Shown here in pieces: positions 13,319-14,929 of a DNA stretch of 64,000 nucleotides; positions within the stretch are counted from its first letter, which is position 1, and the number at the start of each line of letters is the position of its first letter. The DNA is from a bacterium (lineage in GTDB: Bacteria; Patescibacteriota; Patescibacteriia; UBA1558; UBA10009). Location of the stretch: the NCBI GenBank assembly GCA_018672055.1, contig JABHGM010000001.1, positions 824,093-888,092 on the forward strand, read 5' to 3'. The translations under genes and the position numbers were made by a program. The notes under the pieces were generated by a model. The model had not been told where the DNA came from. It worked only from the letters and a program-made list of their open reading frames with translations, and did no database searches.

Positions 13319-14929
13319 CTAATACGAAAGATCCCAACACTTCTTCAAAGCTTCATATAAAACTGGCATTTCATTTTCGAATTGTTCTTTTGTTATTTTA
13401 TTAGCCACTTCTTCAGCATAACTGGTCTTTTTAGCGTCTTTGCCTAGATTTCGAGATTCTTCATATGTCTTTTTCCACTCTCCAGGATAATATTCTTCTA
13501 AACTAGTAACATCCAGTTCAAACAATTGATTATTCCTAACTAAATAAGGGTAATGTTTTCTAAATTCTTCTAATTTATTTTCTGATCTTTTGTCTATCGG
13601 TTTATCACAAATAATTATTGTCCTATCTTTATATATTGGATTATCAGAAATAGCTAATGGATTGTACATTTTATGTATAGCTTCTATATTCCTTCTTTGT
13701 TCCTCTGTGTCACCTCCAGCAAAAGAAATCTGTATATTACCCTTTTTCTCTGGATAAAAACGGCTGATGATTTTTGTTAAAAAAATATACTCCGAACGAC
13801 CTTCTACTATTAAAAAGTTTTTTGGAAATAATAAGTCTGCTGGACTACCGCCTAAAAGTTCATACACAACTCCCATTTTTTCATCTTGATCGATTTTTTT
13901 AATCTCTGTCTTTTTATTCTTCTTAACTACTTCAAAAATATTCTGTATATCTTCTTCATCAGCAACAAGAACTGAAGAATGTGTATTTAATAAAACTTGG
14001 TCTCCTTCTGACGCTACATCTAATAAAGCTCTTTTTAAAGCTCGCTGACCTGATGGATGTAAATGTAATTCCGCCTCATCTATCATAAACAAAAATTGTT
14101 TTCCAACTTGTTGATCTTTCCTAAAATCCGCATAGGCTTGAATTATAGATAACATTATTGCTCGTTGCATCCCATCGCCTTTCTCTTGTGCGCTAGTTTT
14201 GACACCATCATCTACTGTTGTTTCAAAATTTTTCAATAAATCCTCAAATATTGGATCAATAACATTAAATTCGATTTTAGTACCATCGGGGAATTGTTTT
14301 TGTAAATAAATCTCAACTTTATCCCCAAGTTTATTTAATTCGGCCCTAACATCCGAATCTTCTCCACTAAATAAGTCGCTAAATTTTTCTCTAAATTTCG
14401 CATATTCAGGATTCTCTTCTATAATAGCAGACAAAACTCCTGACAACATTTTTGATATTGGCGTTGTGCTCTTATAAACTGATACATCCTCAAGTCTAAT
14501 CTTGGTATTCACATATTCTAGAAATGGCAGAAAGTCATTCAAAGCATTATCAAAACCAGCGCCAGTAGTTTTTTCTTCATCATTTATTATAAATACTCTT
14601 TTATGGTCAATGCTACTCTTTTTAATGGTTACTGTATTCACATCTTCAAGAACTTTTTTAATAGTAGTTTCATTTTTTTTATTTTTCATCACATCAAGAC
14701 CACTCTGAATATCAACATAATCTATTTCAACAAGAATTTCTCTGTCAGATTCTTGTTTAAATTTAATATTATCAGGAGATTTTTTTGCTTTATAAAACCA
14801 ATCAATAGCTTCAAAAAAATTTGTCTTTCCATGGTTATTTTGTCCTACAAAAACATTAAAATCATCAAGTATTATCTCACATGATTCAATTGAACGATAA
14901 TTTTGAATTCTGATCTTCGAAATTTTCAT
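13319..14929 (-). CDS. OLD-family ATP-dependent endonuclease-like protein (ABC-type ATPase N-domain plus Toprim C-domain)
   Basis: Walker A VGQNNHGKTNFFEAI, ABC signature/Walker B region FLFMIDEAELHLHP, Toprim-like LIVEGRSEYIFL ... ICDKPID. Confidence 0.65.
   Translation of the reverse strand: MKISKIRIQNYRSIESCEIILDDFNVFVGQNNHGKTNFFEAIDWFYKAKKSPDNIKFKQESDREILVEIDYVDIQSGLDVMKNKKNETTIKKVLEDVNTVTIKKSSIDHKRVFIINDEEKTTGAGFDNALNDFLPFLEYVNTKIRLEDVSVYKSTTPISKMLSGVLSAIIEENPEYAKFREKFSDLFSGEDSDVRAELNKLGDKVEIYLQKQFPDGTKIEFNVIDPIFEDLLKNFETTVDDGVKTSAQEKGDGMQRAIMLSIIQAYADFRKDQQVGKQFLFMIDEAELHLHPSGQRALKRALLDVASEGDQVLLNTHSSVLVADEEDIQNIFEVVKKNKKTEIKKIDQDEKMGVVYELLGGSPADLLFPKNFLIVEGRSEYIFLTKIISRFYPEKKGNIQISFAGGDTEEQRRNIEAIHKMYNPLAISDNPIYKDRTIIICDKPIDKRSENKLEEFRKHYPYLVRNNQLFELDVTSLEEYYPGEWKKTYEESRNLGKDAKKTSYAEEVANKITKEQFENEMPVLYEALKKCWDLSY

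Follow-up and report, generated by a model that had tools for sequence, protein, structure and literature searches.

A probable single-gene OLD-family defence nuclease with an altered Toprim site in a patescibacterial genome

The OLD protein family underlies Gabija, PARIS and some retrons. Its lone (Class 1) members form, to our knowledge, the least understood branch, in which only P2 Old, Vc OLD from Vibrio cholerae and YbjD (OldB) from Escherichia coli have phenotypes. Here we describe an OLD-family gene from a stretch of 64,000 nucleotides of a patescibacterial genome (contig JABHGM010000001.1, positions 824,093 to 888,092), called the window in the following, and compare it with these proteins. 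P2 Old forms inactive tetramers; these open when aberrant DNA or hairpins of phage origins are sensed, and the enzyme then cuts the anticodon arms of tRNAs in a reaction dependent on ATP hydrolysis (PMC12445682; bioRxiv 10.64898/2026.07.10.737580). Ts OLD, the Class 1 protein of Thermus scotoductus, cuts DNA (PMC7049728). Anti-phage phenotypes conferred by a lone OLD gene have been reported for Vc OLD (PMC12392090) and YbjD (PMC13261556); Vc OLD nicks DNA and depends on its ATPase (PMC12392090), and the Toprim domain of YbjD is dispensable (PMC13261556).

We consider it likely that the gene in the window encodes a single-gene, ATPase-gated and metal-dependent Toprim nuclease that acts in anti-phage or anti-mobile-element defence, a role suggested by homology and by the neighbours of its homologues. 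The gene is a member of an uncharacterised, well-delimited OLD subfamily and not a new system. With 536 amino acids (aa) and a solitary gene it is a Class 1 OLD by genomic context, since no helicase, reverse transcriptase (RT) or AriB is found here and no partner recurs in 74 related loci. The identity of the domains, the fold, the conservation of the motifs and the absence of a partner gene are the firm part of this description. A preliminary description of the same DNA had proposed a stand-alone OLD-family ATPase/Toprim nuclease as a candidate defence gene. Our additions are a probably remodelled active site and the finding that restriction-modification (R-M) operons repeatedly contain homologues.

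The coordinates proposed for the gene are exact, and the open reading frame (ORF) listing of the window shows it as one intact, uninterrupted ORF (Table 1). More than 100 full-length homologues start at the same position as this protein (MKISKI...), and the start codon is therefore sound. The protein entry MBT4121960.1 is identical in sequence and is named "AAA family ATPase [bacterium]" at NCBI and "putative ATP-dependent endonuclease of the OLD family" at JGI; it is carried by 60 contigs, the longest of 963 kb.

The comparison with the profiles of the different OLD classes, which the preliminary description had suggested, clearly favoured the P2 type. The PADLOC profile Old was the best defence profile (E=1.5e-60, 203.6 bits, aa 1-404), followed by AriA (113.8 bits), the retron I-B ATPase-Toprim (96.3 bits) and the GajA models (at most 89.8 bits). 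Pfam assigned AAA_15 (E=2e-32) as well as AAA_21 and DUF2813, and no NCBIfam family scored above its cut-off, retron_eff_Eco8 reaching 86 bits with a cut-off of 250. Among 50,697 phage records searched by tblastn, P2 old was the best match (27% identity, aa 1-398, E=2e-23). Alignment of a 29-member family profile with P2 Old by hhalign gave a probability of 99.8% (E=3.9e-29, aa 2-402 on P2 4-424) and placed K35, D284, H291, H317, E376 and E380 on K37, D299, H306, H332, E398 and E402, which are essential in vivo in P2 Old (PMC7049728). E376 also aligns with E379 of GajA. The top Foldseek matches were GajA (2.4e-21), Ts OLD (5.7e-18) and the retron Eco8 OLD (1.6e-16), with SMC and Rad50 lower. 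Fold, domain order, ATPase motifs and most of the Toprim residues thus assign the protein to the OLD family.

These results also bear on the possibility that the gene encodes a housekeeping ATPase of the SMC/RecF/RecN type acting in genome maintenance, an outcome that the preliminary description had set against its own proposal. Pfam SMC_N scored 28 bits (cut-off 40) and RecF 43 bits (cut-off 172), OLD proteins were ahead of SMC/Rad50 in Foldseek by 6-10 orders of magnitude with full-length alignments, and a Toprim C-terminal region is present. Furthermore, the subfamily is found in 314 of 185,579 species, scattered over phyla and in variable islands. A housekeeping ATPase is thereby refuted, and we leave it practically no weight.

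All catalytic features of an OLD ATPase are present: the Walker A Lys, a signature-like motif, the Walker B Asp/Glu, the D-loop His and the H-loop His. In an alignment of 194 subfamily members of at least 500 aa, to which all conservation counts given here refer, the Walker A residues G29, G34, K35 and T36 are kept in 193 members, as are D252 of the signature-like motif and H317 of the H-loop, and G251, G253, Q255 and R256 as well as D284, E285 and H291 are invariant. The motifs quoted in the preliminary description were all recovered, namely GQNNHGKTN (aa 29-37), LFMIDEAELHLHP (aa 280-292), FLIVEGRSEYIFL (aa 372-384, containing the Toprim Glu) and ICDKPID (aa 440-446), but two of the labels had to be changed in part. 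LFMIDEAELHLHP, described as signature and Walker B, is indeed Walker B and includes the D-loop His, whereas the signature-like motif is KGDGMQRA at aa 250-257. The C-terminus with ICDKPID is Toprim-like as described, but its DxD is not canonical, with Pro in place of the second Asp throughout the subfamily. The AlphaFold2 model contains long helices at aa 157-212 within an insert in the ATPase, modelled with a low predicted local distance difference test score (pLDDT, around 50-70); by likeness to Ts OLD (PMC7049728) this insert is presumed to be a dimerisation domain.

The Toprim motif is defined by a Glu of β1, a Gly of β2 and DxD (PMC6755086). The C-terminal part of our protein has the altered Toprim fold of OLD proteins, with both the Glu at the end of β1 and the Gly after β2, and 148 residues align to the C-terminal region (Toprim and helical domain) of Bp OLD; the four C-terminal helices are modelled with a pLDDT of 83-98. 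In hidden Markov model searches against the PDB, alignments end at about aa 390-400, whether the single sequence or the family profile is used. Since sequence profiles end there, D442, S476-x-E478 and K487 were matched to OLD positions by secondary-structure register and motif spacing. Ts OLD binds metal A with E377/D431/D433 and metal B with D381/S478/E480, and the basic catalytic residue is R487 in Ts OLD, K550 in P2 Old and K562 in Bp OLD (PMC7049728). Motif spacing and strand register, used without superposed coordinates, match E380/S476/E478/K487 to D381/S478/E480/R487 of Ts OLD and to E402/D541/E543/K550 of P2 Old. The site thus retains the Toprim Glu E376, the acidic residue four positions on (E380), the first Asp D442, S476-x-E478 and K487/K501. 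Conservation of these positions is high: E376, E/D380, E478 and K501 are found in all 194 members, G406 in 193, D407 in 192, D442 in 192 (with Glu in the other two), K/R487 in 183 and S/T/D476 in 170.

Comparison with outgroups and P2-like OLDs, drawn from a representative library of 1.84 billion proteins, revealed a clean split. The subfamily and its three nearest outgroups (P0152, P0158 and P0191; 30-33% identity, 570-582 aa) combine D-x-(not D) with an acidic residue after the β2 Gly (GGD or GES), and the P2-like and other OLD representatives have DxD with GGK or GGS after β2. The branch of OLD proteins lacking DxD therefore extends beyond this subfamily. In Bp OLD, the first Asp of DxD binds metal A directly and the second via waters only, and single Ala substitutions of the second Asp had no discernible effect (PMC6755086). 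By analogy, loss of this residue would be tolerable in principle. The active site is therefore probably a remodelled, functional two-metal OLD site, in which D407 may stand in for the missing second Asp as outer-sphere ligand.

An altered site could also mean that the Toprim domain has degenerated and that the protein is an effector acting by its ABC ATPase and dimerisation module only, for instance by binding or clamping DNA. At the position of the second Asp, 183 of 194 members have Pro and none has Asp, Pfam OLD-like_TOPRIM stays below threshold, and a YbjD construct of E. coli lacking Toprim keeps its anti-phage phenotype (PMC13261556), all of which would fit such an effector. However, E376, E/D380, D442, E478 and K501 are invariant or nearly so and K/R487 is kept in 183 of 194 members across phyla, which is not as expected of a decaying site. 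In addition, Bp OLD tolerates single mutation of the second Asp, an outer-sphere ligand, without effect (PMC6755086), and in the subfamily and the three nearest outgroups loss of DxD co-varies with the gain of an acidic residue after the β2 Gly, which looks like compensation. We therefore regard an ATPase-only effector as quite unlikely.

For an active nuclease, a mechanism can be proposed by analogy with P2 Old, Ts OLD, Vc OLD and GajA. The gene would be carried as cargo on an insert of about 10 kb at the 3' end of gap. The ATPase module would sense an infection cue, which might be aberrant or replicating foreign DNA or a phage protein, and ATP binding and hydrolysis together with a change of oligomeric state would license the Toprim site. 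This site would then cut nucleic acid, DNA or tRNA, so that the invader is destroyed directly or growth is arrested.

Several observations weigh against a defence nuclease of this kind. The canonical DxD is absent, the sequence being D442-K443-P444. The Pfam OLD-like_TOPRIM match is sub-threshold (17.5 bits, cut-off 23.2) and covers aa 367-407 with the first 43 of 67 profile positions, and no sequence profile aligns past about aa 400-480. The assignments of D442, S476-x-E478 and K487 are based on secondary-structure register and motif pattern and not on superposed coordinates, and the loop with D407 is modelled with a pLDDT below 50. All members of the subfamily are experimentally uncharacterised. 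Around the gene itself, PADLOC recognises no other defence gene within 10 kb, and the gene is instead packed behind a Rhs toxin and presumed immunity pair. The G+C content is about 28% across the whole window and the composition of the OLD gene is not distinct, thus base composition shows no trace of a recent transfer.

The homologue search, in which each 50%-identity cluster of about 15 billion proteins was represented once, yielded 7,626 matches at E<=1e-3 and just 67 at E<=1e-30. About 21 full-length clusters have at least 41% identity, and the next relatives fall to 31-33%; this gap shows that the subfamily is sharply bounded. Screening of 185,579 species (one genome each) found 314 loci encoding full-length members with 47-60% identity. 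Hosts are Patescibacteria lineages, Gamma- and Betaproteobacteria, Bdellovibrionota, Bacteroidota, Acidobacteriota, Planctomycetota, Omnitrophota, Verrucomicrobiota and others. Homologues are also present in cultured bacteria, among them Burkholderia ubonensis (P0118/L003), Bacteroides gallinarum (L060) and Salegentibacter holothuriorum (L059). This patchy distribution indicates horizontal spread, and conservation across phyla at a prevalence of 0.17% argues for spread under strong constraint. Phage and plasmid records (50,697 phage records) contain no full-length member, and we dropped the idea of a phage- or plasmid-borne gene.

The neighbourhood of the homologues was surveyed by calling ORFs in 74 non-redundant related loci and by clustering and Pfam annotation of all genes within four of the OLD gene. 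No neighbour family occurs in more than 15 of the 74 loci. As stated for the window copy in the preliminary description, which had asked for a helicase partner in related genomes as well, there is no UvrD/PcrA/Rep-type helicase among the 25 commonest Pfam families of the 138 immediate neighbours or among the recurrent clusters, and the recurrent neighbours include no RT or AriB-like partner. The families that do recur are N6/N4 and C5 DNA methylases, HsdM, HsdS, HsdR and type III Res, the TdeIII and Eco47II endonucleases, type IIG and type ISP enzymes, and furthermore GmrSD, DUF2130, nSTAND3, Schlafen/AlbA_2 and tyrosine and serine recombinases. Immediate neighbours are qualitatively enriched in R-M subunits, nSTAND3, Schlafen/AlbA_2, GmrSD and integrases. 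At least 30 of the 74 loci have an R-M gene within four ORFs on either side, which is a qualitative enrichment.

In 13 of the 74 loci the OLD gene overlaps an R-M gene of the same strand or lies within 20 nucleotides of it, in type I, II or III operons; in most of these locus sequences the OLD homologue sits at about 6001-7600. The type I arrangements are hsdM/S-OLD-hsdR (L012, L014), hsdS-OLD-DUF2130 (L011, L016) and hsdM-OLD-hsdS (L057). Type III genes are found as mod-OLD-res (L046, L069) and OLD-res (L009), and the other combinations are type IIG-OLD (L039), methyltransferase-TdeIII-OLD (L023, L041) and OLD-Eco47II-C5 methyltransferase (L005, L010). Several of these OLD genes are located between the two halves of an R-M system (L046, L069, L012, L014). 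The types of R-M system are interspersed over the subfamily tree, which suggests repeated independent association. According to a review (PMC10568477), Class 1 OLD genes do not have other defence genes in their vicinity; the homologues of this subfamily contradict that remark, with R-M genes close by in 30 of 74 loci. We found no direct precedent in the literature for OLD genes embedded in R-M operons. The PluTI element has an OLD-plus-helicase pair (Gabija-like) beside an R-M system, which is a different arrangement.

A protein of the DUF2130 family (about 370-410 aa) is encoded right after the OLD homologue, with spacers of 3-5 nucleotides, in three loci (L011, 3460-4704; L016, 7611-8810; L039, 7636-8736), and in L054 its gene is located directly upstream. 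The DUF2130 protein may be an occasional partner of OLD homologues.

The recurrent R-M genes raise the possibility that the protein is a sensor-effector backing up restriction, which fires when an anti-restriction protein of a phage disables the neighbouring enzyme. PrrC in the EcoprrI locus and PARIS, which senses Ocr, are the models, and both are recognised as "RM guardian systems" (PMC12707154). Such a role is not exclusive of a defence nuclease as favoured above; the window copy would then have become detached from such a system or be the guard of one located elsewhere. The R-M genes within four ORFs in 30 of 74 loci, the tight packing in 13 and the interspersed R-M types are in line with this role, and tRNA cleavage is common to P2 Old, PrrC and AriB (PMC12445682; bioRxiv 10.64898/2026.07.10.737580). 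On the other hand, the window has no R-M gene within 10 kb, 44 of the 74 loci have no R-M neighbour, and the adjacency counts come without a background rate of R-M neighbours. One protein conserved at 50-60% could hardly sense R-M systems of unrelated types and folds, and joint transfer alone may account for the presence in common defence islands or operons. We thus see guarding of R-M systems as rather improbable. It might also be possible that guarding is the dedicated task of the subfamily, whose Toprim site would have been rewired by loss of the second Asp of DxD and recruitment of an Asp from the β2 loop. As an "R-M guardian" module it would have been inserted repeatedly into type I, II and III R-M operons and would fire by cutting DNA or tRNA, with phage anti-restriction factors or failure of the R-M system as the cue and the window copy as a free-standing member. 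This more specific version seems unlikely to us.

In the window, the OLD gene and all its neighbours share one strand. It comes third and last in a tightly packed co-directional group coding for a Rhs protein, a protein of 186 aa and OLD, with spacers of 12 and 11 nucleotides. The C-terminal 295 aa of the Rhs protein match the Ntox44 toxin (E=2.2e-7). The 186-aa ORF has no Pfam or NCBIfam match; it was considered as a partner of OLD and rejected, having no family match and no relative recurring beside OLD homologues in the 74 loci. The placement between a RHS toxin/immunity pair and a gap repeat, as previously proposed, is borne out by the coordinates and by a direct repeat of 146 nucleotides (Table 1). 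Within 10 kb of the OLD gene there is no helicase, so that the earlier statement of a missing UvrD-like partner holds, and likewise no RT, AriB or R-M gene; positions 9000-25000 contain no Rfam RNA family, and the flanking ORFs show no Toprim or DUF4435 match. A scan for promoters and terminators around the gene found 23 sites with 19.6 expected; this is the background level and is therefore uninformative on operon structure.

The two repeat copies are 85% identical and 9,960 nucleotides apart, and they consist of the last 28 or so codons of gap and about 60 nucleotides downstream. Past the stop codon of gap, the left copy alone has an imperfect hairpin (GGTCATACGGACT-gttta-AGTCCATATGGCC; 12978-13040 compared with 22938-22998), therefore the left copy is probably the original gap terminator, displaced by the insert. 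This suggests that the right copy arrived with the insert, which brought its own gap 3' end. The same neighbours were found in all 23 contigs examined for the identical protein, and an exact-match scan of metagenome contigs with the 30-nucleotide core of the gap repeat found no island-free "empty site"; mobility of the insert is therefore deduced from the repeat alone.

Table 1. Positions in the window of the OLD gene, its domains and motifs, and the features around it.
Feature	Position	Strand	Remarks
OLD-family gene	13319..14929	-	ORF list; ATG start, 536 aa, stop codon inside coordinates
Walker A / P-loop GQNNHGKT, aa 29-36	14822..14845	-	aligns with P2 Old P-loop holding K37
Helical insert in ATPase, aa ~140-245, presumed dimerisation domain	14195..14512	-	AlphaFold2 model
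ABC signature-like motif KGDGMQRA, aa 250-257	14159..14182	-	aligns with P2 Old GHGTQR
Walker B and D-loop, aa 279-292 (FLFMIDEAELHLHP)	14054..14095	-	aligns with P2 Old D299, H306
H-loop NTHS, aa 315-318	13976..13987	-	aligns with P2 Old H332
Toprim domain, aa ~365-488	13466..13837	-	E376 and E380 (β1), G406-D407 (after β2), D442-K-P (after β3), S476-x-E478, K486/K487
C-terminal helical bundle, aa 489-536	13322..13465	-	AlphaFold2 model; K501 invariant
186-aa ORF, presumed Rhs immunity protein	14941..15501	-	directly upstream of OLD gene, 11-nt spacer
Rhs/TcB-TcC-like protein, 2160 aa	15514..21996	-	Pfam TcdB_toxin_midN, RHS_repeat; TTG start
Left copy of 146-nt direct repeat (displaced gap 3' end and downstream hairpin)	12978..13123		repeat finding and pairwise alignment
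Right copy of 146-nt repeat (present 3' end of intact gap gene)	22938..23083		repeat finding and alignment
gap gene, intact	22999-24003	-	Pfam Gp_dh matches
Large serine recombinase, 660 aa	10960-12942	-	Resolvase, Recombinase, Zn_ribbon_recom domains

The close packing raises the question whether the OLD gene is part of the Rhs cassette, as a second immunity or accessory factor of the Ntox44 toxin or as an "addiction" gene stabilising the 10-kb insert. The three genes share the strand, have spacers of 11-12 nucleotides and are all located inside the segment bounded by the repeats, and no terminator-like site lies between them, the single match being inside the Rhs ORF. However, no Rhs, Ntox44 or 186-aa-like neighbour recurs in the 74 related loci. 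Full-length homologues with 47-60% identity are found in entirely different contexts, therefore the link to Rhs is specific to this genome, and a function within the cassette is very improbable.

Some further features of the segment were observed. An ORF of 240 aa with a SpvB domain (22192-22914, minus strand) is located inside the repeat-bounded segment, 195 nucleotides upstream of the Rhs ORF. The SpvB domain is normally the N-terminus of TcB-like proteins. The separate SpvB ORF and the TTG-started Rhs ORF are possibly a split or frameshifted gene of the TcB-TcC type. At the insert boundary a chimeric ORF of 49 codons (13039-13188, minus strand) fuses a stretch resembling the end of the Rhs core, YMAWYYDGKVGRFNRVD, in frame to the displaced GAPDH C-terminus (...IIAWDNNEWDYCNRLVEMVQVVHK*). 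The stretch YMAWYYDGKVGRFNRVD has 75% nucleotide identity to 16255-16306 within the Rhs gene, and the ORF looks like the scar of an earlier displacement of a Rhs tip or toxin. The serine recombinase gene starts 36 nucleotides past the left repeat copy and thus outside the segment; it may be part of a second element next to this one or act on the repeat site. Its best NCBIfam likenesses are CcrB and XisF, all below cut-off. A 259-aa S-adenosylmethionine-dependent methyltransferase (8435-9214, minus strand) gave a partial match to PADLOC mad2 (8.6e-13). The common methyltransferase fold is the most likely reason for this match, rather than a MADS system, as further MADS components are absent from the vicinity.

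The subfamily spans phyla that are very distant from each other, its hosts ranging from Patescibacteria with their tiny genomes to Burkholderia and Bacteroides, and databases mostly list its members as "AAA family ATPase". If the protein is an active nuclease, the Toprim metal site would tolerate replacement of the classical DxD, and if the link to R-M operons is functional, a fused OLD protein would join the short list of restriction back-up systems. For the source genome the picture is an ordinary one, with one plausible defence gene and a Rhs toxin cassette on a small insert beside a serine recombinase gene.

Compared with the characterised OLD systems, P2 Old (UniProt P13520) is the closest relative. 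Both are single-gene proteins (586 aa for P2 Old), and they share Walker A and B, the D-loop His, the H-loop His, the Toprim Glu with the acidic residue at +4, and a C-terminal [D/S/T]-x-E ... K-K; the hhalign match covers the whole ATPase and the first strand-helix-strand of Toprim. Identity is 27%, and the sequences are unalignable after about aa 402. P2 Old has D453-C-D455 and VDGKG after β2, whereas the subfamily has D-K-P and GGD. P2 Old is borne by a prophage and triggered in RecBCD-compromised cells, whereas the subfamily is not in any of the 50,697 phage records.

The other systems differ more clearly. PARIS (Class 4) consists of separate AriA and AriB (DUF4435) genes, whereas ATPase and Toprim are fused in one ORF here. 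A Class 3 (retron I-B) assignment is contradicted by the lack of an RT within 10 kb and of an Rfam family in 9000-25000, and by the retron_eff_Eco8 score below cut-off. PrrC has an unrelated C-terminal anticodon-nuclease domain; its embedding in an R-M operon is not seen for the window copy, which adjoins no R-M system, and is seen in 13 of the 74 homologous loci. Vc OLD and YbjD, compared by description only, are chromosomal single-gene ATPase-Toprim proteins described as retaining the conserved acidic Toprim residues. Compared with Class 2 (Gabija GajA; Bp OLD 6NK8, GajA 8U7I and 8SM3), our protein is shorter and has no DxD; its scores on the GajA profiles are far below that on the Old profile, and no GajB/UvrD-like helicase is found within 10 kb or among the recurrent neighbours of the 74 loci. 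To Ts OLD (PDB 6P74) the identity is about 15-16%; Ts OLD has DxD (D431/D433) and no C-terminal helical bundle (PMC7049728), whereas our protein has four C-terminal helices and the invariant K501. One classical OLD-defining feature, the complete DxD, is thus missing from the protein, which combines Class 1 traits (solitary gene, length, and a basic residue 8-9 positions past the Glu of S-x-E) with a C-terminal helical bundle resembling that of Class 2.

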